From contig CAWCNY010000002.1 of NCBI GenBank assembly GCA_963797095.1, forward strand, positions 1,056,001-1,120,000: DNA of 64,000 nt, read 5' to 3'. Shown in pieces: positions 28,640 through 44,486 of this stretch (the stretch's first letter is position 1; each line of letters starts with the position of its first letter). This DNA comes from an uncultured Chloroflexia bacterium. GTDB lineage: Bacteria > Chloroflexota > Chloroflexia > QHBQ01 > JADMIH01. A program made the position numbers and the translations under genes. Below the pieces are notes generated by a model. That model saw nothing but the letters and a program-made list of their open reading frames with translations, was not told the origin of the DNA and did not search any database.

Positions 28640-30814
28640 ATGACTAAGCGATTATCTAAATTATTCATTCTGTTCCTGATCCCTATGGTGCTGGTGGCGT
28701 TGCTCACAGCTTATGCTGCCAACCAGGGTGCAGGGCAAGCAAAGATGGCTACGGCTGCCAACGGGCAGACTTTCCTGCCAGCAGGCACGTGGTCCGATCT
28801 TCCTGTATTTCCAGACGTAACACTGAACTTTGGAGGAAGCTCCTCAGGGTGTGTTGGCACAAGCGGCACCTCCCCTCTCCAACTCAAGAGGTCATTGGCT
28901 GTAGCCTACCCTCCCAACGGCAAAGTCTATATCCTCGGTGGGAGACATAGAGCCGATGGTGATGACATCAACTCCGAGTGGATCTATGAGTACACTCCTG
29001 GCGATAGCTCCTACGTCCTCAAGAACGCCAGGCTTGATAACTGCCGCTACAGCCTCCGCTTCACCTCCAACATGGCTGGTGGTGTCCTCAACGATGGTAC
29101 AGGCACCTACATCTATGCCGTTGGTGGCTCCAACGTAGATAGCGTCGCCACCAACATGGTGCGTGTGTACGACCCGGTTGCGGATACAGTCACTACCCTC
29201 ACCAGCGACCCGTGGCCGGCCAGTCCAACCAGGATACCAGGTGGGTATGCAGTGTACAACAACAAACTGTACATCTTCGGAGGGTACGTATCCCAACCCT
29301 CATCAGTGGTGTACTCAGACACATGGGTATTCGACCCGACAGCCTCAGCAGGCTCAAAGTGGTCCCAGATAGCAAGTGCCAACCTGAGTGTAGCCAGAGG
29401 GTTCATAGGAGGGGCATCACTCGATGGGTGGCTGTACGCAGTGGGAGGCAACGTCATAACAGGAGTAGTAACCACCACCGTGACCCCGCAGACAGTGGTG
29501 GAGAGGATGGACCCAGGAGCAGGCAGTCCCACATGGCAGGCGGTAGCGAGTTTACCGGTAGCGAGGGGAGATGTAGGAATATGGGCATACGACAGTACAA
29601 GCGGGTATGAGATAGGTGGGAGGCTAGTGATAGGGGGAGGGGGGTGGCCGGTACCGGACACGAGTGCCTACATCTACGACCCCACAACAGACAGTTGGAG
29701 CACCTTTGCATCACTGCTAAGGGCGAGGAGGGACGTAGGGCACACAGAGTTAGACGGGAAGCTGTACGCATTTGGAGGGTACAATGTAACAGACAGCTAC
29801 TATGGTGCCAACGACAGCATGGTCTATGACGCCACAGGCCCAGGCCCAACTCCTACCAATACCGTTCCACCTACCAGTACATCCACATCTACAGCGACTA
29901 ACACGCCTGTACCGCCGACGAACACCCCTACAAATACACCTGTACCTCCAACCGCCACATCTGTGCCTCCTACCGACACGCCGGTTCCGACAGATACAGA
30001 TACACCGGTACCTACCGACACGCCCGTTCCGACAGACACGGCTGTGCCACCTACAGATACACCTGTACCACCCACAGACACCCCTGTAATAGTGCCAACT
30101 GATACTGATACACCGGTGCCGCCTACGGATACGCCCGTAGTGGTGCCAACCGATACGCCGGTGCCTACGGAAGTGCTGCCAACTCCTACCACCTGCGCGA
30201 TCTCGTTCTCGGACGTAGATTCGAGCAACACCTTCTACAGCTACATTATGTGCCTGGCATGCGATGGCATCCTCAATGGTTATCCTGATGGTACGTTCCG
30301 GCCTGCTAATCTGGTAACCAGGGGCCAGCTTGCCAAGATCGTGTCCAACTCAGCGGGCTGGAATGAGCCTGTTTCGGGCCAGACCTTCCAGGATGTGCCG
30401 GAGGGGTCCACCTTCTACGAGTTCGCCGAGCGCATGGCTGCGCATGGCGTAATGTCGGGCTACGCGTGCGGTGGGCCAGGTGAGCCTTGCGGTGCTGGCA
30501 ATCTGCCCTACTTCAGGCCTGATGCGTCCGCTACTCGCGGCCAGATAGCCAAGATCGTATCCGAGTCCGCCGGCTTCGGCGGCGATCCGGGTGTCCGGAT
30601 CTTCGAGGACGTGGCGTTAGGCTCCACCTTCTACGAATACATCCAACGGCTTGCCATGCTTGGCATAGTAAACGGTTACGACTGCGGCGGGCCGGGAGAG
30701 CCGTGTGATGCGTATAACAGGCCGTACTTCAGGCCCAACAACAATGCCACACGCGGCCAGATAGCCAAGATCGTCTCTTTAGCTTTCTTCCCAAGCTGTG
30801 GCACGACGAAGTAA
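28640..30814 (+). CDS. Secreted six-bladed Kelch protein with PTDT linker and three SLH domains, copy 1
   Basis: Signal peptide; blades [42 protein letters not shown]; SLH triplet. Confidence 0.88.
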   Translation: MTKRLSKLFILFLIPMVLVALLTAYAANQGAGQAKMATAANGQTFLPAGTWSDLPVFPDVTLNFGGSSSGCVGTSGTSPLQLKRSLAVAYPPNGKVYILGGRHRADGDDINSEWIYEYTPGDSSYVLKNARLDNCRYSLRFTSNMAGGVLNDGTGTYIYAVGGSNVDSVATNMVRVYDPVADTVTTLTSDPWPASPTRIPGGYAVYNNKLYIFGGYVSQPSSVVYSDTWVFDPTASAGSKWSQIASANLSVARGFIGGASLDGWLYAVGGNVITGVVTTTVTPQTVVERMDPGAGSPTWQAVASLPVARGDVGIWAYDSTSGYEIGGRLVIGGGGWPVPDTSAYIYDPTTDSWSTFASLLRARRDVGHTELDGKLYAFGGYNVTDSYYGANDSMVYDATGPGPTPTNTVPPTSTSTSTATNTPVPPTNTPTNTPVPPTATSVPPTDTPVPTDTDTPVPTDTPVPTDTAVPPTDTPVPPTDTPVIVPTDTDTPVPPTDTPVVVPTDTPVPTEVLPTPTTCAISFSDVDSSNTFYSYIMCLACDGILNGYPDGTFRPANLVTRGQLAKIVSNSAGWNEPVSGQTFQDVPEGSTFYEFAERMAAHGVMSGYACGGPGEPCGAGNLPYFRPDASATRGQIAKIVSESAGFGGDPGVRIFEDVALGSTFYEYIQRLAMLGIVNGYDCGGPGEPCDAYNRPYFRPNNNATRGQIAKIVSLAFFPSCGTTK

Positions 30815-31659: not shown

Positions 31660-34026
31660 ATGATGTCTAAACGGCTTACTAGCCTGGTTATCGTGTTCCT
31701 GATTCCTGTCGTGCTGGTAGCTCTGCTGTCGGCCTACTTAGTCTCTCAGAATGCTGGTGGGGTACGGCTTGCCACCGTAGCGAGCGGGCAGGGGCTATTG
31801 CCCTCCGGAACCTGGAGCAACCTTCCTGTATTCCCGACAGTAACACTGAACTTTGGAGGAAGCTCCTCAGGGTGTGTTGGCACAAGCGGCACCTCCCCTC
31901 TCCAACTCAAGAGGTCATTGGCTGTAGCCTACCCTCCCAACGGCAAAGTCTATATCCTCGGTGGGAGACATAGAGCCGATGGTGATGACATCGACTCCGA
32001 GTGGATCTATGAGTACACTCCTGGCGATAGCTCCTACGTCCTCAAGAACGCCAGGCTTGATAACTGCCGCTACAGCCTCCGCTTCACCTCCAACATGGCT
32101 GGTGGTGTCCTCAACGATGGTACAGGCACCTACATCTATGCCGTTGGTGGCTCCAACGTAGATAGCGTCGCCACCAACATGGTGCGTGTGTACGACCCGG
32201 TTGCGGATACAGTCACTACCCTCACCAGCGACCCGTGGCCGGCCAGTCCAACCAGGATACCAGGTGGGTATGCAGTGTACAACAACAAACTGTACATCTT
32301 CGGAGGGTACGTATCCCAACCCTCATCAGTGGTGTACTCAGACACATGGGTATTCGACCCGACAGCCTCAGCAGGCTCAAAGTGGTCCCAGATAGCAAGT
32401 GCCAACCTGAGTGTAGCCAGAGGGTTCATAGGAGGGGCATCACTCGATGGGTGGCTGTACGCAGTGGGAGGCAACGTCATAACAGGAGTAGTAACCACCA
32501 CCGTGACCCCGCAGACAGTGGTGGAGAGGATGGACCCAGGAGCAGGCAGTCCCACATGGCAGGCGGTAGCGAGTTTACCGGTAGCGAGGGGAGATGTAGG
32601 AATATGGGCATACGACAGTACAAGCGGGTATGAGATAGGTGGGAAGCTAGTGATAGGGGGAGGGGGGTGGCCGGTACCGGACACGAGTGCCTACATCTAC
32701 GACCCCACAACAGACAGTTGGAGCACCTTTGCATCACTGCTAAGGGCGAGGAGGGACGTAGGGCACACAGAGTTAGACGGGAAGCTGTACGCATTTGGAG
32801 GGTACAATGTAACAGACAGCTACTATGGTGCCAACGACAGCATGGTCTATGACGCCACTGCCGGGGGTACCACGCCCACCAACACGCCTGTGTTGCCCAC
32901 CGGTACGCCTACCAATTCACCAACGCGCACTAACACGCCAAGTAACACACCGCTACCTCCAACAAGCACCTCCACGCGCACGAATACGCCTGTGCCGCCT
33001 ACCAACACGCCTACCAACACGCCTACCAACACGCCTACCAACACCCCAACTAACACTCCAACGGATCCCCCCACTAATACGCCTACCAATATGCCCACCA
33101 ACACGCCTACCAATACCAACACTCCGGTGCCGCAAACTGCCACCAACACAACGGTGCCATCTACGAACACGGCGGTTGCGACCAATACCCCTACCAATAC
33201 GAACACTCCCGTACCTACCAATACCCCAACGAGCACGAACACACCCATAGACACCCCAACCGACACCCCAACCGACACCCCAACCGACACTCCTGTACCG
33301 CCAAGTACTCCCGCCAGCACAGACACGCCCGTGCCTCCAAGTGATACGCCTGTGCCGACAGACACTGCCGTGCCCCCGACTGACACTCCAGTGCTTTCGA
33401 CACCTACTACCTGTACCTTGAGCTTCTCAGATGTTCCGTCCGGCAGCACGTTCTACCCATATGTTATCTGCCTTGCCTGCCACGGCATAGTAACCGGCTA
33501 TCCTGATGGAACGTTCCGCCCGGATAACAATGTGACCAGGGGTCAGCTTGCCAAGATCGTGTCCAACTCGGCAGGGTTCGATGATGTGCCGGGCGCGCAG
33601 ATGTTCGCAGACATAGCACCGGGCTCCACCTTCTTCGATTTCGTTCAGCGTCTCGCCTCTCGCGGGTTTATAGGCGGTTATGCATGTGGCGGATCCGGTG
33701 AGCCTTGTGGAGCAGGCAACCTGCCATACTTCAGGCCGAACAATAACGCCGCGCGTGGGCAGATAGCCAAAATCGTCAGCAGTACGGCGGGCTTTGGCGG
33801 CGACCCTGGCGTACAGATCTTCGAGGATGTGCCGCTAGGCTCCGCCTTCTTCGACTACGCACAGCAACTCGCCATGCGCGGAATAGTGAGCGGTTATGAC
33901 TGCGGCGGGCCGGGAGAGCCGTGCGGTCCAGGCAACAGGCCCTACTTCAGGCCCAACGAGAACGCTACACGCGGGCAGATAGCCAAGATCGTATCTATCA
34001 CTTTCTTCCCGGATTGTGATCTATAG
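31660..34026 (+). CDS. Secreted six-bladed Kelch protein with PTNT linker and three SLH domains, copy 2
   Basis: Kelch region near-identical to copy 1; different signal peptide, linker and SLH sequence. Confidence 0.88.
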
Positions 34027-34037
34027 AGAAGAATCAA

Positions 34038-34078
34038 GCAAAGAAAATGGGCCGCATGACGCGGCCCATTTTCTTTGC
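34038..34078. terminator. Bidirectional intrinsic terminator
   Basis: gcaaagaaaatgggccgc-atgac-gcggcccattttctttgc. Confidence 0.85.
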
Positions 34079-34090
34079 CATTTGTGTTGG

Positions 34091-36355
34091 CTAAGAGGTG
34101 CGTTGTGAGCTATCGTAGAAGTACGCCCCTTCGGTGGTCTCGTCCGGGTAGAAGAATGGATAAGCCCCCGACAGCAAGCTGCGCAGCCAGCTTCGCGACA
34201 TTGGCCGCTCCAGGTTGACCACGGGGAAGAGGTCATCCAGGATCGCCCACAGTTTGCCGTCATTGCTCTCACCAACCGCCTCGAAAGCGTTGGCTATGAT
34301 TACTTCCGGCTTCCTGCGGTCGGCATCGTCCAGTTTCTTCTGGTTGTGCAACTTACCGAACTTCTCCTGGGTCAAAAGCATGTTGGGGTCGGTGCCGACC
34401 ACGAACTGCACGGGCCGGAACACCCATCTCCCCTTGCGCTCGTCAAGCTGAATAAGGTTGGCTTCTTCCTCTTCGGTGCGCACGAAGTGTATCTCAAATA
34501 CGTCCTCGCCACGGTCGGTGGGGGTGATGGTGAACTTTGCGCCCGGCACCATATGGTCGGTGAAAAGCTCGCTCAGGCCCATAATGAAGCCGCCCCGGTT
34601 GCCGGTTGGGTATCGTAGCTCGGCAAGGAGGGAGCCGTAGAGTTGTGGCACCTCGAAGCGGAGAAGCGATGCGCGCTGGTCCTCGAAGACACCCCCTGGG
34701 AAGACGCGTTTGAAGCGTAGGTCGTAGGGCAGGACGCCATGCTCGTACTCGTAGTAGGTCAGCGAGTATTCCATCGGCCCGCCGCTGTAGGCACGTATAG
34801 CTTCGTCTTCCTCTTCGGTTTCCAAAACGGTGGGGTCTTCCAGGAAGCGATAGTCCTGCCCGATCTCTGCCGGTTTGCGGGTGGCTGGGGGCAATACAGG
34901 CGACGAGCCTGCGTTCACCCAGAGGCGGTCGCCGTCGATGCCGACGAACTCGAAATCTTTCTTCTCCTTGAGGAGGCGGAAATCGAGTGAGAAGCGCACG
35001 CGATCATATGCCGGGTCATCGAGTCGGCGTCCCAGGACATCGGCCATAATATCGCGATCGGATGCCACACCTCCGGTCTCAGGCTCGTCCAGGTATTCTT
35101 TGATCCTGCGGTAATCGCCTTTACTGAAGCGTTCCGTCGCCTCTTCGGGGAATATGTCGGAGCCGAAAGTAATAAGCCGTGTGTCGTTTTCGACCGCTGC
35201 TGCCATCATACCGCCAAGCGCGGCTGCCACGTTATCATCCAGCAAAATTTCATCGACAGACTGGTTGAGGTCAATTGTAACAGGCCCTTGCTCGGTCGCC
35301 AGCGTAACCTCTACAGGCCCCGTTACGACGGGGGCGGCCGGGGTTGGCGGTGCGGCGGTTGCCGGGCGTGTGGCGGGCGTGGCGGGTGATGTAGGCGTGA
35401 CCGGTGCCGCCGGGGTCGCGGGTTTACCGGCAGCCTGGGCTTCAACCGGGGCTTCTGTGGTTGTATCAGTAACTGTGGTTGTGGCAGGTGGGGTTGCCTC
35501 TTCGGCGGGTGTGGCGACTGGTGTTTCTGCTCGGCGCGCTGCTGCCTCTTCTTCCGGTTTTGTTGTAGTCCGGGCCGCCGTGGTGGGGGTCGTTGGAGTG
35601 GTCGGAGCGGTTGCTGGAGTCGTGGGTACGCTCACGGCAGGTTCGGCCACGCCCTGGGCTTGAGATGTTGCGTTGGCAGCTTCGGCAGGACGTGCGGTAG
35701 GGGCAATTGCTGGAGGTTGTGTTGTAGGCGTGGCAGCGGATGCGGCGGCAGGCGTAGCGGGAGCCTGGACAGTCGGCTCCGGCGGTCGCTCACGGACGAC
35801 TTGCGCTTGCGGGATGAGGGTTGGCTTCTCGGTGCTACGGCTATATGGCGTGGTAGGTAGTGGCGGATATGCCGGGCCGACAACGCTGCGAGATGGCATC
35901 TCTTCTATTTCCACTTCCTCAAGCATGGCGCTCTTCTCGGCGCGGCTACTCGACTGGCTTTGCAGGTGCGTCTTATATTCCTCCGCCTCCTCGGGAGCGA
36001 GCACTGTTGCTTCCTGGTTGAGTCTTTCCCTGAAGGTATGGGTGCTGTCGGCTCCGCCTGTGTTTGGTGCGTGACCTGCCTTGGTGGTTGCGAATTCTCC
36101 GTCGCCCATATCGGCGAACACATCGGGGTTGGCTTGCAGGGCGGCCTCCAACCTCGTTGCGAGGTCCGCCGGCTTGGTGCCCGCGTATGGCCCACCTGCT
36201 TTGGTGAGCATCTCGGCTATGGCTGCGAGCGACATTTTCATGGGCGCATTGACGGCATACAGAGGATATTTACGCTTGACTACATCAAACGCGCGGGCCG
36301 CCATCTCCTGTTCTTCTTTTGTACCGTGAAACGCTACCTGTACTGCTCCTGTCAT
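34091..36355 (-). CDS. Large cytoplasmic protein of unknown function with a Pro/Ala/Thr-rich disordered centre
   Basis: 754-aa ORF with GGAG RBS, host-like codon usage, globular N- and C-terminal parts, no signal peptide. Confidence 0.8.
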   Translation of the reverse strand: MTGAVQVAFHGTKEEQEMAARAFDVVKRKYPLYAVNAPMKMSLAAIAEMLTKAGGPYAGTKPADLATRLEAALQANPDVFADMGDGEFATTKAGHAPNTGGADSTHTFRERLNQEATVLAPEEAEEYKTHLQSQSSSRAEKSAMLEEVEIEEMPSRSVVGPAYPPLPTTPYSRSTEKPTLIPQAQVVRERPPEPTVQAPATPAAASAATPTTQPPAIAPTARPAEAANATSQAQGVAEPAVSVPTTPATAPTTPTTPTTAARTTTKPEEEAAARRAETPVATPAEEATPPATTTVTDTTTEAPVEAQAAGKPATPAAPVTPTSPATPATRPATAAPPTPAAPVVTGPVEVTLATEQGPVTIDLNQSVDEILLDDNVAAALGGMMAAAVENDTRLITFGSDIFPEEATERFSKGDYRRIKEYLDEPETGGVASDRDIMADVLGRRLDDPAYDRVRFSLDFRLLKEKKDFEFVGIDGDRLWVNAGSSPVLPPATRKPAEIGQDYRFLEDPTVLETEEEDEAIRAYSGGPMEYSLTYYEYEHGVLPYDLRFKRVFPGGVFEDQRASLLRFEVPQLYGSLLAELRYPTGNRGGFIMGLSELFTDHMVPGAKFTITPTDRGEDVFEIHFVRTEEEEANLIQLDERKGRWVFRPVQFVVGTDPNMLLTQEKFGKLHNQKKLDDADRRKPEVIIANAFEAVGESNDGKLWAILDDLFPVVNLERPMSRSWLRSLLSGAYPFFYPDETTEGAYFYDSSQRTS

Positions 36356-36430
36356 GCTTACTCCAGTTGTCGGGGTCGAATCGAATTGTCCTGATCTGGT
36401 TTGGGTGGTATATCAGCAATTAATGCGGGT

Positions 36431-36625
36431 CTATCTTATACCGCGCTCCTCCCGCAACAATTCAATGTAGCGCCGGACCAGCGACTCGATAGTCTGAGGC
36501 TTGCCCGTGCGCCGCATCCAGTCAATAAGGCGCTCCATGTCACGCATGGAAATTGTGATTTCTTTACCTGGCAATTTAGCTCCTTCTCCTTGGTTCGATC
36601 CATTTACAAATATTAATGGCAACAT
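36431..36625 (-). CDS. Small hypothetical protein (64 aa)
   Basis: Amphipathic helical sequence, same strand and just upstream of the 754-aa gene. Confidence 0.55.
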   Translation of the reverse strand: MLPLIFVNGSNQGEGAKLPGKEITISMRDMERLIDWMRRTGKPQTIESLVRRYIELLREERGIR

Positions 36626-36688
36626 TGCGCCAAGCTATTTTACCGTATAGAGCCGGGGATGGCAATGCGCACACACATTATGACAAAA

Positions 36689-36717
36689 TTGACAAAGCGG
36701 TCATGCTCGTTTAGAAT
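36689..36717 (+). promoter_or_regulatory. Sigma-70-type promoter
   Basis: TTGACA, 17 bp, TAGAAT upstream of 36754. Confidence 0.65.
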
Positions 36718-36753
36718 CGGCACAACTCTAACCTGTAATAGAGGCGGGCGATT

Positions 36754-37239
36754 ATGGCGTTGAGTGAGATCGCGGCCTGGGTCGCGCTTGGGTTGTCGCT
36801 GGTGCTTCTGGTGCTGTTTGCCTGGCAAACGGTGCGCTTAGGCAATATAGAACGGCGATATAAGGCGCTGACCGGTGGGGAAGGGTCGGGGGGCGCGCCT
36901 ACGCTCGGTGAGCTGGTTGTGGGGCAGGGGCAAAAGCTCGATAAGACCGCCAAAGACCTCTCCGGGCTGACCGATACCGTGAAAACGATGGAGAAATCGG
37001 TGCAGGGGAGCGTACAGCACGTCGGCCTTGTGCGCTTCAACCCCTTTCAGGAGACGGGTGGAGATCAGAGTTTCGCGCTGGCTCTGCTCGATGGTCGCGG
37101 TGATGGCATAGTGATCAGCAGCCTGCACAGCCGGGCCGTGACACGCTTCTACGCCAAGCCTATCAAGGGGGGAGCATCCCAACTGTCGCTTTCCGACGAA
37201 GAGGCGCAGGCGGTACAAATGGCACTACGAAGCCAGTAG
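36754..37239 (+). CDS. DUF4446-family membrane-anchored protein
   Basis: N-terminal TM; VGLVRFNPFQETGGDQSFALALLD..DGIVISSLHSR..TRFYAKPI..G.S...LS.EE. Confidence 0.88.
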   Translation: MALSEIAAWVALGLSLVLLVLFAWQTVRLGNIERRYKALTGGEGSGGAPTLGELVVGQGQKLDKTAKDLSGLTDTVKTMEKSVQGSVQHVGLVRFNPFQETGGDQSFALALLDGRGDGIVISSLHSRAVTRFYAKPIKGGASQLSLSDEEAQAVQMALRSQ

Positions 37240-37446
37240 CCTGCGCCAATGATCCTCCCCAATACAGAGCAAAAGCGCTGAAGTGATGTTTCCAAATGTG
37301 GCACAAAAATGCTATAACTAAGGTGTATTGAACTAGCGGAAACGGATCACTTGTGTATAGTGCGTGTGGCTATAAAGAACCCCCTGCCATCCAGCTTCTA
37401 AAGGGGAAGGGCCGGACGCAACATATCGTTTCAGGAGCCAGGGTAA

Positions 37447-38628
37447 ATGAGCACGCTTCGCAGTTTGCGGGAGAGAAAAGGATTTACAGTATCGCAGTTG
37501 GCGGCAAAAGCCAGCATCCCTTCCAGGCTTATCGCCGATTATGAAGAGGGCAAGACCTCGATCACCCTCACCCATGCCAGATTGCTTGCCAAAGCCTTGT
37601 GGGTAGGGATCGAGGACCTGATGCCCCCAGCCGGGGCTATACCTCCCTCGCCATCGCAATCGCCGCCTGTGCAGTCCGCACCACCTGTGCAGAGGCAGGC
37701 CCCTTCCCCTCCACAGACGGCCCAGCGTCCGGCGCCGCCCCCTCCGAGGCAAGCGCCCGATCCGGGCACCGGTGGCGGGCAGAGCCAGACCTACGGGCGG
37801 AGCCAGACCTACGGGCAAGCGCAAGGGCAGGGTTACAGGCAGGACAGGCACGATTATCCCGGAGGCCAGAGCACACGTGTGGATACCCCACGTCCCCAAC
37901 GGCCCGCTGGTTATGAAGGCCGAGAGGGTGGTCATGGGCAGCATAGAGGAGCGGGAGATAGCGCGGGTGGTGGCCGTCAGGTGCGCAGCCCGCGCCCTGC
38001 ACCTCCGCCGCCCAGCGCTATTAGCGAGGGCCAGGTCCAGGAGCTTGAACGATTAGCTGTCAAGTTAGAGATTACACTTGAGCAATTGGAAGAGCGAATC
38101 GGCAAGAAGGTGCCGGAGTTGAGCAGGCCCGAAGCCAAAGATTGGATCAAGCGAGTGCGCGGCATGGCGGAGGAACTTGCACCCAGCAAGAAAGCGGCTT
38201 ACGGCCAATGGCCCGGCGGCCACGTCGATCAGGAAGCGTCGTACCTCGCTTCACAGAAAGAGGCAGGTGCCTATTTCCGGTTCAAATTGTTCAACGGAGA
38301 AGAGATCGGCGGCACAATCACCGATTTCACCCCCTACACGATCACGATCAGCTCGAACGGAAGCGGTGATGACGTTGTGCTGCGCAAGCTTGCCATCGCC
38401 TACTACCGGCGTAGCGACCAGCCCGCTGCCGGAGAGGAGCCTGCGTCTGCGGATGCCACTTCCCAGGCAGCCCCAAAGCGCACCCGCGCATCCAAAGCGC
38501 ACGCCCCCACGCATAACCACGAGCGCGACGATCAGCACCAACCTCTCGCTACAGGCATAGATTCCGACCGCCCCGATGAGCCGGGAGCGCCCGAAGTCGA
38601 CAATATGGACGAAGATCGGGGGCTGTAG
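37447..38628 (+). CDS. XRE HTH - disordered linker - helical bundle - Hfq/Sm-like domain fusion protein
   Basis: LRSLRERKGFTVSQLAAKASIPSRLIADYEEG (HTH); QEASYLASQKEAGAYFRFKLFNGEEIGGTITDFTPYTITI...VVLRKLAIAYY (Hfq-like). Confidence 0.8.
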   Translation: MSTLRSLRERKGFTVSQLAAKASIPSRLIADYEEGKTSITLTHARLLAKALWVGIEDLMPPAGAIPPSPSQSPPVQSAPPVQRQAPSPPQTAQRPAPPPPRQAPDPGTGGGQSQTYGRSQTYGQAQGQGYRQDRHDYPGGQSTRVDTPRPQRPAGYEGREGGHGQHRGAGDSAGGGRQVRSPRPAPPPPSAISEGQVQELERLAVKLEITLEQLEERIGKKVPELSRPEAKDWIKRVRGMAEELAPSKKAAYGQWPGGHVDQEASYLASQKEAGAYFRFKLFNGEEIGGTITDFTPYTITISSNGSGDDVVLRKLAIAYYRRSDQPAAGEEPASADATSQAAPKRTRASKAHAPTHNHERDDQHQPLATGIDSDRPDEPGAPEVDNMDEDRGL

Positions 38629-38630
38629 CC

Positions 38631-39089
38631 ATGAGCCTGAGCGACTACATAAAGTACCAGAGGGCTTTGAAGGGCGGCCTGACGCCCTGGGAGATCGCGG
38701 AGGGAAGTGGAGTGCCATCGCGCGAGGTGCACCTCATCGAGGTGAAGCACAGGCGCATGGGCGAAGATGACTCCGTCCTTCAGAAACTGGCCGACTACTT
38801 CGGAGTGCCCATAGCTGAGCTTGCGGGCAGGCGCGAGGCATACCGCAAGCGGATGATCTCGTTCCTGGAGGACTATATTCGCGACGAGCGAACGGTGAGC
38901 CTCCGGCTGGAAGGCGGTGAGGAGGTCGGAGGCGTGCCCATCTGGTATTCCAGGGAAGCGGTAGCGCTACGTGCCCAGGATGCAACCGAGGAATCAGATG
39001 ATTTGTGTATAGTGCAGAGGGCATGGGTGGCGGATTGGAAAGCGGGTGACGCGCCTGATTGGGAAGTGGGAGCGCCTGCCACTCTATAG
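38631..39089 (+). CDS. XRE HTH - Sm/Hfq-like domain fusion protein
   Basis: LSDYIKYQRALKGGLTPWEIAEGSGV...LQKLADYFGVPIAEL; ISFLEDYIRDERTVSLRLEGGEEVGG...IVQRAWVADW; starts 2 nt after the upstream stop. Confidence 0.7.
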   Translation: MSLSDYIKYQRALKGGLTPWEIAEGSGVPSREVHLIEVKHRRMGEDDSVLQKLADYFGVPIAELAGRREAYRKRMISFLEDYIRDERTVSLRLEGGEEVGGVPIWYSREAVALRAQDATEESDDLCIVQRAWVADWKAGDAPDWEVGAPATL

Positions 39090-39096
39090 ACACTGA

Positions 39097-39122
39097 GAGA
39101 CCCGCCGCCTGGCGGGTTTTCT
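39097..39122 (+). terminator. Intrinsic terminator
   Basis: acccgcc-gcct-ggcgggt followed by a T-tract. Confidence 0.7.
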
Positions 39123-39128
39123 GTTACT

Positions 39129-40292
39129 ATGGTGAACCCGATGGTAGATGCACAGGCAAGCGCAGGACTAAAGGAAGAACTGGACCCTGAGCGGCAGGAG
39201 AAGGCGCGCCGCTACGCACGTATTCAGCGTATATTTTCGTTCGTTGACCTCGCTATCGTAGCAGTTGTGCTCGTGCTGCTCCTGGTCACTAACCTGTCCA
39301 TTGGTCTTCGTGACTGGGTCGAGGGCATGGGCGGGCCGCGCCTGCTGAGCGTCGCTTTGTACGGAATTGTGGTGAGTGCGGTGTTTATCATCCTCTCATT
39401 GCCCCTCGACTTCTACAGTGATTATGTGCTCCCGAAGCGCTACGGTTTGCTGACTCAGAGCCTGGGCGGGTGGGCGCTCAATTCGGTCAAAAGCCTGGTC
39501 CTAACGGGTGTGCTGGGGCTGCTGGGGCTTGAGGCGTTATACATCTTGCTCGATGCCTGGCCTCAGTGGTGGTGGGTCGCGATGGCGGCTCTGCTGTGGC
39601 TCTTCTCGGTGGCGGCTGCGTGGCTTGCGCCTTTACTGCTCATGCCTCTCTTCTACAAGTTCAAGCCTCTCGACGATCCTGAGTTGGTGGCCCGACTTAC
39701 CAGGCTGGCAGAACAGGCCGGGACGCGGGTAGAGGGCGTCTATGTGATGGATATGAGCAGCAGGACTACCGCCGCCAATGCCATGCTGGCGGGTATGGGC
39801 AGCACCCGCCGTATCATCCTGGGCGATACCTTGCTGGCTAATTATACTTACGACGAAATAGAAACGGTGCTGGCCCACGAGTTGGCTCACCACGTGCACA
39901 ACGACCTGCTGCTAGGGTTGGCCGCCCAGGCCGTCATTATCACTGTGGGCATGTGGGTTGCCTCTGTGCTGCTTGCCTGGGGTGTTGGAGCCTTTGGGTT
40001 CAGCAGTGTTGCCGACATAGCGGCCTTGCCGTTATTCGTGCTGACAATGAGCGTCTTCGGACTTGTGACAGCCCCTCTTGTCAACTTCCTATCGAGGGGC
40101 AGAGAGCGCGCCGCTGACCTATACGCCCTGAAGACCACAGGCAACGTGCAGGCGTTCCGCTCGATGATGCTCAAGTTAGCAAACCAGAACCTCTCGGACG
40201 CCAACCCACCCGCCTGGGTGCGCATAATGTTCTACAGCCACCCGCCCGTAGCCGAAAGAGTAAAGCTGGCCGAAGCAAGAAGTGAGACGTGA
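39129..40292 (+). CDS. M48 (Ste24/HtpX-like) membrane zinc metalloprotease
   Basis: ANAMLAG, RRIILGDTLL, VLAHELAH, ERAADLYA, YSHPPVAERV. Confidence 0.92.
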   Translation: MVNPMVDAQASAGLKEELDPERQEKARRYARIQRIFSFVDLAIVAVVLVLLLVTNLSIGLRDWVEGMGGPRLLSVALYGIVVSAVFIILSLPLDFYSDYVLPKRYGLLTQSLGGWALNSVKSLVLTGVLGLLGLEALYILLDAWPQWWWVAMAALLWLFSVAAAWLAPLLLMPLFYKFKPLDDPELVARLTRLAEQAGTRVEGVYVMDMSSRTTAANAMLAGMGSTRRIILGDTLLANYTYDEIETVLAHELAHHVHNDLLLGLAAQAVIITVGMWVASVLLAWGVGAFGFSSVADIAALPLFVLTMSVFGLVTAPLVNFLSRGRERAADLYALKTTGNVQAFRSMMLKLANQNLSDANPPAWVRIMFYSHPPVAERVKLAEARSET

Positions 40293-40320
40293 GGACGAAG
40301 CATCCGCAAGAGCAATCCCG

Positions 40321-40400
40321 AAAACTATACCAAAGTACACCCCAAAACCTGTCCAGATTTGTCCCACCAATGCCATTTAGTAAGTGAGGCCGAATCCAAC
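40321..40400. repeat. Dispersed intergenic element, second copy at 63888-63990
   Basis: aaaactAtaccaaagtacaccccaaaacctgtcc vs aaaactGtaccaaagtacaccccaaaacctgtcc (33/34 identical), with weaker similarity continuing downstream. Confidence 0.8.
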
Positions 40401-40592
40401 ACCAGGATCGAGCATCAAGCAGAAAAGCACCAGCAACCAAAGGTCCACATCCGGTGATCAGAAGTCGCAATCAGGAAGTAGGAACTAGGAACCAGGAACT
40501 CGCTACATCTCCTTGCAGTATAGTGAGCAGCAGACTATAATCGCATGCTAGGTGGGAGTGCGATCCTCATTCGATTGGAAAGGAGCGGTCTC

Positions 40593-41351
40593 ATGGGGGA
40601 ATTGGTACGCATTGGCCTGGTTGGTGAATACAACGCGAACGTGAAGGCGCATAAAGCTTTGCCAATCGCGCTTGCTATGGCAGCCGAGCAGGTTGGCTGC
40701 GACGTAGAGACCGTGTGGCTTACCACTCCTCAACTTGCCGAAGACCTTGACCATGCCAGGCGGCTCGACGGTATCTGGGTAACGCCGAACAGCCCTTACG
40801 CAAGCCTGGAGGGCGCTCTCGGCGTGATCAGGATGGCGCGAGAAGAGCACAAACCCTTCATGGGCACATGCGGCGGCTTCCAGCACGTCCTCATAGAGTA
40901 CGCACGCGATGTGCTTGGCATCCTCGATGCGGAACATGCCGAATCGAACCCCGATGCTTCGGTGCTTTTCGTCACCCCATTAGTGTGCGCCTTGCGCGAC
41001 GTCAAAGGCCCGATCTATCTCAGGCCAGGGTCTAGGATCAGCCGCATCTACGGTGTTGAGGAGACATTAGAAGAGTATAATTGCGGGTTCGGCCTCAACC
41101 CCACCTATCGAGCGATGATCGAAGAGAGCGCGGCCGAGATCACAGGCCGGGACATCGAGGGAGATGCGCGAGTGCTCGAATTGTCCGCCGAGCGCCACCC
41201 CTTCTTCATAGCAACCCTCTACCAGCCTGAACGGTCGGCGCTGGCTGGCGAGCGCCACCCATTGATTACGGCCTACATGCAGGCCGTTATGCAGACAAAG
41301 AGCGCGGTGGCTCAGTTTAGCACTGCCGAGCGACTACCGGTAGGACGGTAA
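40593..41351 (+). CDS. Stand-alone CTP-synthase-C-terminal-like glutamine amidotransferase
   Basis: AAGGAG RBS; RIGLVGEY, DGIWVTPNSPY, GTCGGFQH, HPFFIATLYQPER. Confidence 0.85.
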   Translation: MGELVRIGLVGEYNANVKAHKALPIALAMAAEQVGCDVETVWLTTPQLAEDLDHARRLDGIWVTPNSPYASLEGALGVIRMAREEHKPFMGTCGGFQHVLIEYARDVLGILDAEHAESNPDASVLFVTPLVCALRDVKGPIYLRPGSRISRIYGVEETLEEYNCGFGLNPTYRAMIEESAAEITGRDIEGDARVLELSAERHPFFIATLYQPERSALAGERHPLITAYMQAVMQTKSAVAQFSTAERLPVGR

Positions 41352-41382
41352 GTAAATCTCACGGCGCGAAAGAGAGGTCATA

Positions 41383-42567
41383 ATGGCCGACATCACAGAC
41401 ACAAGCCGTCTCGACTACACAAGAGAGAGCACCAAGCCCAATGGTAAAGCCACAGCGGGAGGCGGACTGGTTGGCCGTGAGGATCCGTTGGCGAAGGTGC
41501 TGGAGTGGGATTGGGGCACGGCCTACGAGATGCTTTTCAGCCTCCATACTATCCTGCGGCCCAAAGAGCACGGCATCCCGGCCCCCTGGGCGGCGGGCGT
41601 GCGCAAGCGGCTCTCTCCCCAGTCACAGTCCGACCTCAAGCTCTTTTTCAGCATGCCCTTCGGCTACCTGGCTTATTCCCCTATGCATCTTATCCTGGGG
41701 ATGAACAAGCCCAAGAACGTCAAGCGGTTTCTCGACCTGGTGAGCGGCATACCGGATGACGAGTTCTCGAACAGGGTGCACTTGCCCATCGTGGGCGATG
41801 AAAGCCTTAAGCGCCTTATGGACAAGGCCGCCGAAGGCAAGCGAATGAGCGAGGTCGATGTGGAGGAATATCGCCGGATCGTCGCCATGTCGGCAGGGCG
41901 AAGTGCTCCCAGCGCGACCGAGATACGCAGGCTCTTCTCGGAGATGGGCGACTCGGCTGGCACCAAGCAGCGCTGGCTCTCTCTACTGCGCGAGTACCAG
42001 GCGGTCTATTTTGCCGAGGAAGAGAAGCGTGTGGGACCGGTGCTTGAGAAGATGGTGGCCGATGCCCAGAAACTGGCGAAGAAGACCACAGTGCCCGACC
42101 TGATAGAGCGGCTTTCCAACGGCTTCACCCTGAGCCAGGATTTCGATCTGCAAAGGCTGGTGCTCATCCCTTCCGTGTGGGCGCACCCCTTTGTGATCAG
42201 GTTCGAGCCTGCTGACAGAGAATACTTCGTGGCCTGGGGCGCGCACCCACCAGGCTACCGGCTGGTTCCCGGCGAGTCGGTGCCGGACGATGCGCTGCTG
42301 GTACTTCGCGCCCTGGGCGACCCGACGCGCCTGCGCCTGCTGCGCCTGTTGAGCGCCGAGCCGAGGTCGCCGCAATCGCTGGCAATCGAATTGAAGTTAA
42401 GCCTGCCCACCGTATCGCACCACATGCGCGAGCTGAGGATCGCGGGCCTGATCAGGATCGAGGTCGCGGGCAAGGGACGTGAGAGCAAGTACACCGTCAG
42501 GTGGCCCAGCGCCCGCCGAGCCTTTGAGCAACTGGAAGAGTTTGTCCTGCGTTCAGGGGAAGAGTGA
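41383..42567 (+). CDS. ArsR-family regulator with long N-terminal (DUF5937-like) domain
   Basis: C-terminal LRALGDPTRLRLLRLL...LAIELKLSLPTVSHHMRELRIAGLI; LVLIPSVW. Confidence 0.85.
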   Translation: MADITDTSRLDYTRESTKPNGKATAGGGLVGREDPLAKVLEWDWGTAYEMLFSLHTILRPKEHGIPAPWAAGVRKRLSPQSQSDLKLFFSMPFGYLAYSPMHLILGMNKPKNVKRFLDLVSGIPDDEFSNRVHLPIVGDESLKRLMDKAAEGKRMSEVDVEEYRRIVAMSAGRSAPSATEIRRLFSEMGDSAGTKQRWLSLLREYQAVYFAEEEKRVGPVLEKMVADAQKLAKKTTVPDLIERLSNGFTLSQDFDLQRLVLIPSVWAHPFVIRFEPADREYFVAWGAHPPGYRLVPGESVPDDALLVLRALGDPTRLRLLRLLSAEPRSPQSLAIELKLSLPTVSHHMRELRIAGLIRIEVAGKGRESKYTVRWPSARRAFEQLEEFVLRSGEE

Positions 42568-44486
42568 GGCGCGATAGCCCAGGTCAACAAGACACCGCGG
42601 AGACGCGCATCGCGTCTTTTCTCCGGTCCGTGACAACCCCCACTTCCATAAAGACCGCCCTCCTGGCGATTGCGCTTCTGTATCTGGTGGGCCTGGCTGT
42701 CATGCCTCCGGAGGGTCTGACCCACCACGACACCGGGGCCAAATACTTGCAGGTGCGCAACTTGCGCATCACCATGAGCGGCCTCGATTACTCGATCAAC
42801 TATCCGGCGCGCAACCTCGACCCTACTTTGCAATGGGTGCCGTTTCAGGAGAAGCAATACTACATAGACTACCGCGAGGGGCAGGATCACGGGCTTATCT
42901 ACTTACAGTGGCCTATCTTTCTCGGTCTGCTAACGCGCATACCCTGGAAAGTGCTGGGGTTCTGGGGCCTGTATGTTGTGCCTTTTCTGGGGGGCATAGG
43001 CGTTTGCTGGGCGACTTTCCGGCTGGCTCTGGCATTGGGCGTGCCCAGGCTCGTAGGGTGGGTAGCCGCGCCACTGGTGGGTCTCGCGACCCCTCTCGCG
43101 ATCTACTCCCTACTCTTTTTCGAGCACACCCTGGCGGCCATGTTGGTCGCTCTGAGCCTCCTTTTCGCGGCCAGGAGCGTGACCGGGGGCGGTCGCCACG
43201 CTATGGCTTTGAGCGCGGTAGCTCTGGCGGTTGCGGTCTATTTCCGGTCGGAGTTGTATGTGCTGGCGGCGGTAATGGGGCTTGTATACGCGCTGCTGGC
43301 TTTGCGCTGGCGCGACTGGCGGGCGTGCCTGCTGGTGTGGGTTGGGGCCTTTGCCCTGGCGCTGGTGCCTCTGTGGGCTTTCTACGCCATCACCGAAGGC
43401 ACTCTCTTGCCTCTGCACGCGACGTGGTACTTCGCCGGAAGCTCCGGCGTGGGAGAGGCCGCGCCTGGGCAATCGGGCGGGCTTGAGCTTCCGGCTTTGC
43501 GCTATATAGTGACGGCGGGCTGGCGGGTCGTCCCCGATTTCCTGTTTGGTCCGCAGACTTTTCCTTCGTCGCCCATCTTCCCGGTGTGGGTAGGCGTGCT
43601 GGGCGTAGGTGGCATGATCTTGTGTGCACTGGCGGCGTTTGGGCGAGGACTGGCCCGCAGGTGGGCCAGACTTGGAGATTGGTGGCAGGCATGGGCCTTT
43701 CTGATTGGTATGGCGTCTGTGTGTGTGGCCTCTCTAGCAGTGGCCCTCTTGCCTCAATCTTATCACAACCTGCATGGGTTCGTGCTGGCAAGCCCGTTCG
43801 TCGCTCTAGCTCTGTGGCCGCCTGATAAGATCGTCACTCAGGACGGAATAAGCGCGCACGGCTTGGTTTACGTGATAACCCTCGCGTACATCGTCCTGCA
43901 CGCGCTAATAATCAGCGCATTGAGCGGTCTGGGGCCGATCAGCCGGGCCGAATGGGGCCAGCGCTATTTGCTAGCGGCTTATCCTGGGTTGGTGGCGCTC
44001 GCTATGGCGGCGGCAGTGCGGTTGTGGAATACGGAGCTTGGGAAGCTCGCTGCGAACGCGGAAACCCGCAGGCGCTTCAAGATAGCGTTCGCAACCGTGA
44101 CACTGGCGCTCGTGGGGGTGGGATTGGCCTTCACCATAAGAGGCTATGGCGTGCTCTATTACGAGAAGACGCAGGTGAAGGCGTGGCAGGACCTGGCAAG
44201 CGCGCTGCCCGACCGTGAGCCGCTGGTAACGGACGATTGGTGGCTTCCGCTCAACCTGGCGGCGGTCTTCTATTCGCGGCCTATTATGCTGGCAAGCGAC
44301 GACCGGTTGGCGCAGTGGGCAGGCGGCATGCAGCAGCGCGGAGTGGCTGAATTCGCCTTGATGAGCGACCGGCCCTCGGTATTCGAGGGAGCATGGCGTA
44401 GCAGCGTGCCGAGCTTGGAGCCTGTGAATGGGTTGGTGGAGGTGCGTGGGATCTGGTTGCAGAGGTTCCGGTTCACCGGGCCATAG
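42564..44486 (+). CDS. Polytopic GT-C-fold glycosyltransferase-like membrane protein
   Basis: First loop HHDTGAKYLQ, YSLLFFEHTLA, FRSE, WGQRYLL; many TM helices. Confidence 0.65.
   Translation: MRRDSPGQQDTAETRIASFLRSVTTPTSIKTALLAIALLYLVGLAVMPPEGLTHHDTGAKYLQVRNLRITMSGLDYSINYPARNLDPTLQWVPFQEKQYYIDYREGQDHGLIYLQWPIFLGLLTRIPWKVLGFWGLYVVPFLGGIGVCWATFRLALALGVPRLVGWVAAPLVGLATPLAIYSLLFFEHTLAAMLVALSLLFAARSVTGGGRHAMALSAVALAVAVYFRSELYVLAAVMGLVYALLALRWRDWRACLLVWVGAFALALVPLWAFYAITEGTLLPLHATWYFAGSSGVGEAAPGQSGGLELPALRYIVTAGWRVVPDFLFGPQTFPSSPIFPVWVGVLGVGGMILCALAAFGRGLARRWARLGDWWQAWAFLIGMASVCVASLAVALLPQSYHNLHGFVLASPFVALALWPPDKIVTQDGISAHGLVYVITLAYIVLHALIISALSGLGPISRAEWGQRYLLAAYPGLVALAMAAAVRLWNTELGKLAANAETRRRFKIAFATVTLALVGVGLAFTIRGYGVLYYEKTQVKAWQDLASALPDREPLVTDDWWLPLNLAAVFYSRPIMLASDDRLAQWAGGMQQRGVAEFALMSDRPSVFEGAWRSSVPSLEPVNGLVEVRGIWLQRFRFTGP

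Follow-up and report, generated by a model that had tools for sequence, protein, structure and literature searches.

Hfq counts as the Sm protein of bacteria, although several phyla lack it. Two described groups of proteins carry a domain of the Sm or Hfq fold in one chain with a domain of DNA-binding type. In the WYL regulators (PafBC, DriD and the CapW/BrxR type) a DNA-binding helix-turn-helix (HTH) is joined to an Sm-fold domain; these factors act as dimers, not rings, and pafB and pafC are adjacent genes. The accessible part of the source describes the WYL Sm-fold domain as a ligand sensor and PafB and PafC as two paralogues acting as one factor, and its authors compared WYL with Hfq (PMC6789036); the ligand of DriD and CapW is given, in the portions of the literature available, as single-stranded DNA (ssDNA). 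The second group are the zinc-finger–Hfq fusions of Thermococcus and Methanococcus plasmids, in which a DNA-binding-type domain stands N-terminal to an Hfq-like domain; in the available excerpts they are uncharacterised and proposed to bring an Sm protein to DNA (PMC3710371; PMC3543421). Here we describe a pair of adjacent genes, gene 1 and gene 2, from a 64,000-nucleotide stretch of the genome of an uncultured Chloroflexia bacterium (contig CAWCNY010000002.1, positions 1,056,001 to 1,120,000; the whole stretch is called the window below). Both encode an N-terminal domain of the XRE HTH type and, by fold and profile comparison, a diverged C-terminal Hfq domain.

The genes and their principal domains are located in the window as follows.

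37447 to 38628, forward strand: gene 1, 393 amino acids (open reading frame (ORF) list, Pfam, AlphaFold2 model, 97 homologues)
37447 to 37626, forward strand: XRE-type HTH of gene 1, residues 1-60, basic, pI 9.8 (Pfam HTH_3)
38221 to 38415, forward strand: Hfq-fold Sm domain of gene 1, residues 259-323, a helix and five strands
38631 to 39089, forward strand: gene 2, 152 amino acids, pI 4.9 (ORF list, 177 homologues, AlphaFold2 model)
38631 to 38828, forward strand: HTH-like domain of gene 2, residues 1-66, net charge -2, pI 5.6
38829 to 39050, forward strand: basic helix RREAYRKR and Hfq-fold Sm domain of gene 2, residues 67-140

The Sm fold, i.e. an N-terminal helix followed by five strongly bent strands, is present in the AlphaFold2 (AF2) models of both proteins. 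The gene 1 model, built from a 39-sequence alignment, is confident for the HTH (1-58), for residues 191-244 and for the Sm domain (262-323, predicted local distance difference test score (pLDDT) above 90), and disordered at about 60-189 and in the tail; the gene 2 model (pLDDT 83.6, predicted template modelling score 0.73) consists of a five-helix N-domain and the Sm domain. In a search of the gene 1 model against structure representatives, Caulobacter Hfq (6gwk) ranked first for residues 260-324, with a Z-score of 12.0 and a root-mean-square deviation (rmsd) of 1.1 Å over 63 residues. Five Hfq entries scored Z 11.2-12.0, and archaeal and eukaryotic Sm proteins Z 8.5-9.5. The Sm domain of gene 2 matched the same Hfq at Z 10.0 and an rmsd of 1.4 Å over 62 residues. 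The Foldseek matches listed point the same way: those from the PDB were all Hfq entries for gene 1, and those for gene 2 were Hfq chains with template modelling scores of 0.71-0.87 by target length.

The family models of Hfq are approached from below. Gene 1 scored 12.0 bits (whole protein) and 16.3 bits (domain alone) against Pfam Hfq, and gene 2 scored 19.7 and 21.3 bits against Hfq_1, the gathering threshold being 27; the NCBIfam model Hfq_rel_Cyano gave 14.4 bits with a cut-off of 52. Profiles were then built from alignments restricted to the Sm domains of the window and of related loci; A3 comprised 25 rows of gene 1 type and A4 27 of gene 2 type. A3 matched Hfq of B. subtilis (3ahu) at E 6.9e-6, and 36 of the 39 solved structures listed for it had been deposited as Hfq. 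A4 matched Caulobacter Hfq (6gwk) at E 1.4e-6, and the two profiles were aligned with each other by hhalign at a probability of 96.3% and E 1.9e-9. Among 1.84 billion representatives A3 found 157 proteins (clusters at 50% identity) at E <= 1e-3 and 88 at E <= 1e-10. When 40 long, strong matches were scanned, 38 carried an N-terminal XRE HTH and 16 a sub-threshold Hfq or Hfq_1 match, and 18 of 30 weaker matches were Pfam Hfq or Hfq_1 proteins above the cut-off, which A3 reaches at library-wide E values down to 5.4e-8. Since the A3 and A4 profiles match Hfq and 18 of the 30 weaker matches are valid Hfq proteins, both Sm domains are, judged by profile comparison, diverged members of the Hfq lineage, and it is the HTH fusion that defines the family. 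The A3 search further yielded unusual Hfq architectures (P0306, P0308, P0311, P0316, P0320, P0323): in some proteins, 126-171 amino acids long, two Hfq stretches stand in tandem, P0323 joins an Hfq_1 domain to a cold-shock domain, and P0306 is a 574-amino-acid TPR protein with five Sm-like stretches.

The HTH of gene 1 is a clear member of Pfam HTH_3 (E 1.9e-11, 44.3 bits, cut-off 23), and in a structural search residues 1-60 resembled C.AhdI, SinR, P22 c2 and DdrO at Z 10-11. The N-terminal domain of gene 2 stays below the HTH_3 cut-off (15.6-18.2 bits), its five-helix fold matches CapH, P22 c2 and the 434 repressor at Z 9.5-9.9, and hhalign relates it to the HTH of gene 1 with a probability of 76% and E 2.2e-5. 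Within its residues 1-46 (38631-38770) the recognition-helix region is invariant and atypical, VHL.EVKHR (H34, E37, K39, H40, R41). Together with the net acidic charge of the domain, this region is unusual for an XRE domain that reads DNA. The helix that begins the Sm domain of gene 2 opens with the basic, invariant RREAYRKR. A preliminary description of the locus, made from the sequence alone, had proposed that each protein fuses an HTH to an Hfq/Sm-like domain, with an XRE-type HTH at the N terminus of gene 1, and had named Foldseek as a check; AF2 models, fold searches and profile homology bear the proposal out, the C-terminal domains being modelled as Sm folds. The two peptides that it quoted are both present in the proteins, the stretch of gene 1 from DQEAS to AIAYY ending at 38406 (from 38227) and not at 38412, as had been given, two codons too far.

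Homologues of gene 2 (177) and of the C-terminal half of gene 1 (97) come mostly from metagenome-assembled genomes (MAGs) of Chloroflexia or Chloroflexota, and JGI automatic names label some of the latter 'XRE HTH / sRNA-binding regulator protein Hfq'. Gene 1 lies directly 5' of gene 2 in 26 of 28 loci on genome contigs, and the arrangement DUF4446 - gene 1 - gene 2 - M48 protease is frequent (the M48 gene follows in 24/28 and the DUF4446 gene precedes in 17/28). In the order to which the window belongs, gene 2 was found in 37 of 40 genomes, in single copy and including all 11 of high quality, the Sm domain of gene 1 likewise in 37/40, and both genes adjacent on one strand in 35/40. These counts include four unpublished genomes (G404, G405, G406 and G428), without which they become 33/36, 33/36 and 31/36, respectively. 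Of 400 other genomes sampled across the phylum, only 6 gave a gene 2 match, and five of the six loci had an adjoining gene 1-type Sm gene. Family f8 of the same class has a diverged pair: the gene 1-like protein is 228 amino acids long and lacks the middle domain (see below), and the gene 2-like protein (locus L041, 644-1420 on the reverse strand; also in L009) is 258 amino acids long with the Sm2 motif QRHAI. Past the Sm domain the latter carries a C-terminal Gly/Arg/Pro-rich repeat tail of about 120 residues (GNEGGYRPRPPGGG units).

A tree was computed from 62 Sm rows, i.e. 25 of gene 1 type, 27 of gene 2 type and 10 of Hfq. The gene 1-type and the gene 2-type rows each fell on one side of a branch (support 96/91 and 99/94), in a tree with few columns and long branches whose Hfq rows are biased, being taken from the A3 matches. 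Both Sm types occur in all sampled lineages, so the duplication would predate the divergence of these lineages. On the evidence of these comparisons gene 1 and gene 2 are ancient paralogues that have stayed side by side on the chromosome, in single copy, throughout one order of Chloroflexia and in part of the remaining Chloroflexota, and since the pair recurs in so many genomes, its arrangement is not due to chance. A synteny survey across Chloroflexota and a check for a canonical hfq had both been proposed in the preliminary description. The first, as just described, found the pair conserved, with diverged pairs elsewhere in the phylum. The second found no ordinary Hfq above the cut-off in the genome of the window (93% complete), where the Pfam Hfq and Hfq_1 matches are the pair and one chance match, and none in 151 sampled genomes of the class, the same search being positive in 5 of 14 control genomes; this lack means not found among the genomes searched and is not proof of absence. 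The chance match, a weak Hfq_1 hit at G000:C2:212495, had been considered as a second Hfq-like gene and was rejected: it lies in a 309-amino-acid ORF that is not an HTH-Sm protein and that, on our reading of its sequence, may be an APH-like phosphotransferase.

The TAG stop codon of gene 1 occupies 38626-38628 and, as first described, the ATG of gene 2 follows after 2 nucleotides; an AGGAG is located 10 nucleotides 5' of the gene 1 start. Among homologous loci the junction ranges from a 4-nucleotide overlap to 157 nucleotides and, with overlaps included, does not exceed 3 nucleotides in 14 of 23 loci with both ORFs read. Junctions are thus often between -4 and +3 nucleotides, which suggests that the two genes are probably translationally coupled. 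The remaining features of the locus are the following.

37627 to 38013, forward strand: Pro/Gly-rich basic linker of gene 1, residues 61-189, predicted disordered, 22% Pro, pI 11
38014 to 38214, forward strand: three-helix middle domain of gene 1, residues 190-256, pLDDT above 90, conserved
38551 to 38625, forward strand: acidic C-terminal tip of gene 1, residues 369-393, net charge -7, DSDR..EP..PE.DNMDEDRG[VLIM]
39099 to 39125, forward strand: intrinsic-terminator-like hairpin, an 8-bp GC-rich stem with a GCCU loop (39099-39118), then UUCUGUU

The linker of gene 1 has pLDDT values of 41-56 and varies in length among homologues, where it gives gappy alignment columns. The middle domain is formed by helices 194-206, 211-218 and 227-244 in the AF2 model and is possibly a degenerate HTH: Pfam Xre-like-HTH matches it weakly in 5 of 22 members (best E 6.9e-5). 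A profile search against solved structures found no natural relative, with E < 0.01 only for two designed repeat proteins and no stretch passing alone; the ESM Atlas gave no usable match, and the whole-model fold searches of gene 1 barely test this domain. A collinear hhalign alignment had suggested that it is a copy of the gene 2 HTH, and this was rejected, as hhalign of the domain alone gave a probability of 5%. The acidic tip is kept in the close clade and missing from the clade of loci L031-L038.

How the pair compares with the described systems can now be stated. With Hfq (PF17209; cyanobacterial Hfq_1, PF21979) it shares the helix and five-strand Sm fold at the Z-scores and rmsd values given above, the Sm1 glycine, which is conserved, the loop 3 aromatic and the Sm2 lysine in gene 1, and a predicted β4/β5 contact. 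It differs in the HTH fusion, in having two paralogues and not one gene, in its sub-Pfam scores, in the replacement of the Sm2 histidine by leucine in gene 1, in QRAWV and a glutamate at the aromatic position in gene 2, and in acidic cores. From the WYL regulators it differs in its XRE-type instead of winged HTH and in the lack of a recognised WCX domain, and by fold Hfq appears to stand well above WYL: in the structural search the DriD WYL domain (8tp8) matched the Sm domain of gene 2 at Z 7.4 on rank 50, with Hfq at Z 9.3-10.0, and the 50 matches listed for gene 1 did not include it. Pfam WYL gave no match at E <= 1 with the whole proteins or at E <= 10 with the isolated Sm domains. The zinc-finger–Hfq fusions are set apart by their description, namely by a C2H2 finger encoded by a single gene on archaeal plasmids, whereas the pair has XRE HTHs and lies on a bacterial core chromosome; Pfam found no zinc-finger family in the pair, the N-termini being XRE HTHs. 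A third comparison is with DdrO/IrrE and CapH/CapP. The HTH of gene 1 is close to those of DdrO and CapH and a zinc protease gene is adjacent, but this protease is a membrane M48 enzyme, the C-terminal domain is Hfq-like, and the protease adjacency is not kept outside the order.

A literature search found no paper on XRE-HTH–Hfq fusions or on Hfq homologues in Chloroflexota, most subscription journals lying outside the search. The initial statement that no characterised system with this paired architecture is known is to be amended by the precedents of the WYL factors PafB/PafC and of the zinc-finger–Hfq fusions. Among characterised systems the WYL family comes closest in its logic, and among architectures that include a true Hfq domain the zinc-finger–Hfq fusion does; the joining of an Sm/Hfq fold to a DNA-binding domain is of a kind already known, of which the XRE-Hfq chromosomal gene pair is a new form.

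What the two proteins do together is a more difficult question. A complex model of one copy each of gene 1 (residues 188-393) and gene 2, with a separate alignment for each, reached an ipSAE interface score of 0.67 (runs 0.68, 0.66 and 0.67) versus 0.00 for the best control, the ipSAE mark being attained by 58 of 80 solved complexes and by 2 of 110 mismatched pairs. The runs had at least 64% of contacts in common and partner pLDDT values of at least 76. In the predicted interface β5 of gene 1 (317-322) pairs with β4 of gene 2 (125-129) and the helix of gene 1 (261-266) touches as well; the β4/β5 contact is that of neighbouring subunits in Hfq rings. The acidic tail of gene 1 had no confident placement. 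The complex model thus points to an Sm-to-Sm contact between the two proteins. The hetero-oligomeric Sm ring proposed in the preliminary description has, for its hetero-contact, the backing of a model, and the proposal as a whole is supported in part.

The residues that would line a nucleic-acid pocket are partly kept. In HMMER alignments to the Hfq proteins of B. subtilis and S. aureus, LRKLAIA of gene 1 is opposite IYKHAIS, so that the lysine (K314) is retained and the histidine is replaced by leucine; the change from YKHAI to RKLAI noted at the outset is thereby confirmed. DFTPYT of gene 1 is aligned with GFDNFT, with the aromatic residue kept (Y297, corresponding to F/Y42), and both DFTPYTI and LRKLAIAYY are conserved in the gene 1 Sm domain. 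In diverged orthologues of gene 2 the Sm2 motif still reads QRHA[IV] or ERHAV (RHA[IV] in L005, L041 and L044). The loop 3 aromatic F/Y42 of Hfq stacks on uridine, and arginine residues at the rim of Hfq have a role as well; no rim arginine patch was seen in the gene 1 helix when alignments A2 and A3 were read. According to the accessible part of the source, the Sm2 lysine and histidine of Hfq contact RNA at the proximal face (PMC6789036).

The interpretation that we tentatively prefer, and that we rate as somewhat less likely than not, is a mixed oligomer mediated by the Sm domains, in which gene 1 would bind DNA and a partly kept Hfq pocket would sense a nucleic-acid ligand. The two proteins would be made together and assemble by edge pairing of β4 and β5 into a mixed oligomer, possibly a ring. 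Gene 1, with a basic HTH on a basic disordered tether of about 130 residues, would provide the main DNA contact, and the acidic gene 2 would be an obligatory ring partner or a modulator. The loops DFTPY and RK of the gene 1 Sm domain, which in Hfq line the nucleotide pocket, would bind RNA or ssDNA, and ligand binding could be coupled to operator binding as in the WYL-domain regulators. By analogy with E. coli Hfq, whose acidic C-terminal domain mimics nucleic acid according to the available part of the source (PMC5606850), the acidic tip of gene 1 may act as a competitor of nucleic acid. We consider a more specific version unlikely: a heteromeric Sm ring (e.g. A3B3) with several HTH arms, some on 130-residue tethers, as the sole machine of Hfq type in a lineage whose searched genomes yielded no canonical Hfq, linking RNA or ssDNA binding to promoter DNA. 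An RNA-responsive transcription factor or a DNA-RNA bridge, which is how such a ring might act, is doubtful to the same degree. Mixed Sm rings are otherwise known from the eukaryotic Sm/Lsm proteins.

Several observations weigh against the mixed, ligand-sensing oligomer. Both proteins score below the gathering thresholds of Pfam Hfq. Without the histidine of the Sm2 motif [YF]KHA[IV] the proximal pocket of gene 1 is incomplete. In gene 2 the canonical pocket is lost: the motif reads QRAWV and WYSREA is aligned with WFDNFC, which places Glu109 at the position of the pocket aromatic. The Sm cores have net charges of -1 in gene 1 (family median -3) and -4 in gene 2 (family median -1), and the HTH of gene 2 is itself acidic (pI 5.6). 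The acidic cores call for caution on RNA binding, and the case for an Hfq-like RNA binding by these domains is, as far as the residues tell, weakened. As to the complex model, its score may come from likeness to Hfq rings, since such rings have been solved, and the model separates neither hetero- from homo-assembly nor one ring size from another. Finally, gene 2 is without an adjacent gene 1 in two species (L011 and L018), in whose genomes the C-terminal half of gene 1, used as query, was not found elsewhere (both are MAGs, completeness not given), and a search of the order found gene 2 but no gene 1 match in G407 (87% complete) and G425 (90% complete). In view of this, pairing may not be obligatory.

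The main rival is a pure scaffold: the Sm domains would no longer bind nucleic acid, and their sole role would be to oligomerise gene 1, as an XRE transcription factor, with its paralogue gene 2 as a co-factor. The pair would then work as a repressor or activator of the ordinary kind, unusual only in how it assembles, a possibility that we place on the unlikely side but take seriously. The exchanged pocket residues (leucine for histidine in gene 1, glutamate for the aromatic in gene 2) and the acidic Sm cores speak for such a scaffold, and most of the conserved Sm residues (261-266, 296 and 313-322) lie within the predicted subunit interface, so their conservation could reflect assembly alone. 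What speaks against a scaffold alone is that gene 1 keeps the pocket aromatic and the lysine, that the diverged gene 2 orthologues named above keep RHA[IV], and that the gene 2 of family f8 carries its long Gly/Arg/Pro-rich tail, tails of this composition being a mark of RNA-binding proteins.

It is improbable, in our estimate, that the two proteins form separate homo-oligomers that act independently or in opposition, for example with gene 2 titrating the targets or ligands of gene 1. Gene 2 does occur without a nearby gene 1 in two species, and the complex model cannot tell hetero- from homo-contacts. Bacterial Hfq rings are moreover homomeric, a homohexamer being described in the part of the source at hand (PMC6789036). 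The adjacency in 35 of 40 genomes, the tight or overlapping junctions and the predicted hetero-interface (0.67 versus 0.00) argue for a joint assembly instead.

Quite improbable, too, is a lineage-specific Hfq, i.e. a pair acting primarily as RNA chaperone, with HTHs that would tether it to the nucleoid or a partner protein and not to operators. This would fit with the canonical Hfq not found in this genome or in the 151 genomes of the class, with the order-wide, single-copy presence of the genes, and with the significant Hfq homology at profile level. The HTH of RodZ (2wus) also matches that of gene 2, at Z 9.1, and RodZ uses an XRE-type HTH to bind MreB. The incomplete pocket, the acidic cores and the rim arginine patch not seen in the gene 1 helix do not fit, and the HTH of gene 1, a basic XRE domain of the standard type, has true repressors as its closest matches.

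A repressor under protease control, in which one of the two proteins would be cut by the adjoining M48 zinc protease as in DdrO/IrrE, CapH/CapP or BlaI/BlaR1, is very improbable: the HTH of gene 1 matches DdrO and CapH, and in 24 of 28 loci the next gene after the pair is that of the M48 protease, which in the window starts 4 nucleotides past the U-run, but the enzyme is of the membrane Ste24/HtpX type (Pfam Peptidase_M48_N and M48 domains), which we take not to be of the IrrE/ImmA/CapP kind, its adjacency is missing in family f8 and in the other loci of the phylum, and a terminator stands between it and the pair. A module that belongs to a mobile element, a toxin-antitoxin system or defence, and whose XRE protein is the antitoxin or repressor, can practically be dismissed, since against the HTH matches to phage repressor PHROGs, CapH and HigA-type folds stand a single-copy, order-wide occurrence (37/40), the conserved synteny DUF4446 - gene 1 - gene 2 - M48, the lack of a toxin-like partner among the ordinary cell genes within about 10 kb, and the fact that the PADLOC and PHROGs libraries gave only generic HTH matches, those of PADLOC covering the HTH alone.

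The terminator that had been noted after gene 2 begins 10 nucleotides past its stop codon. In a folding test the hairpin and U-run reached -19.1 kcal/mol, a stability that none of 200 shuffles attained (z -3.85); the terminator is thus borne out by folding energy, though a consensus terminator scan did not have the hairpin at 39099-39118 among its calls. The U-run ends 4 nucleotides before the first ATG of the M48 gene (39129), and an alternative ATG at 39141 is preceded by GGTGA. There is no space for a promoter between the hairpin and the M48 ATG, so that the protease gene must rely on read-through or on a promoter within gene 2.

On the other side of the pair, the best sigma-70-like promoter match of the region (36689-36717, TTGACA-17-TAGAAT, 11/12) lies 5' of the DUF4446 gene and not of gene 1. 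As far as sequence can tell, the DUF4446 gene and the pair may be transcribed together. In the more distant clade L031-L038, about 30-60 nucleotides before the gene 1 start, the palindrome CTGTGT-TGCC-ACACAG directly adjoins a TATAAT box on its 3' side, and a conserved leader comes next. This palindrome is a candidate autoregulatory operator or 5' hairpin, its conservation among close relatives being weak evidence. A 26-nucleotide direct repeat (22/26 identical, with the exact 13-mer TTGTGTATAGTGC) has one copy in the gap 5' of gene 1 (37338-37363) and the other within the 3' part of gene 2 (38990-39015). It was rejected as an operator pair, as 0 of 22 other loci had a match between upstream region and gene 2 above shuffles, and would be either lineage-specific or due to chance. 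An Rfam scan of 33000-43000 gave no credible RNA family.

The neighbours of the pair are the genes for DUF4446, the M48 protease, a GATase, an ArsR-type regulator and S-layer homology (SLH)-Kelch proteins, as well as a thymidylate kinase, a WecG transferase and a PfkB kinase; within about 10 kb the family matches to neighbours are ordinary cell genes, with no mobile-element family among them. A 754-amino-acid ORF on the reverse strand (34091-36355), with a long Pro/Thr/Ala-rich centre and no Pfam or NCBIfam family match, has homologues that likewise lie 5' of DUF4446 in three loci (L012-L014). Further upstream, 28640-30814 and 31660-34026 encode tandem paralogous large proteins with Kelch beta-propeller repeats and an SLH domain.

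Taken as a family, these proteins represent a diverged Hfq lineage in Chloroflexota that standard models overlook and that is met only in HTH fusions, encoded by a conserved pair of genes. The family is small and well defined (157 clusters) and consists of two small proteins, which makes it amenable to test. If the Sm domains serve as a scaffold only, they would still be a new way of oligomerising an XRE regulator. A mixed ring, if true, would be a bacterial counterpart to the heteromeric Sm rings of eukaryotes, and sensing of RNA or ssDNA by the Sm part, if true, would extend the WYL logic, in which an Sm-fold sensor drives an HTH, to true homologues of Hfq.

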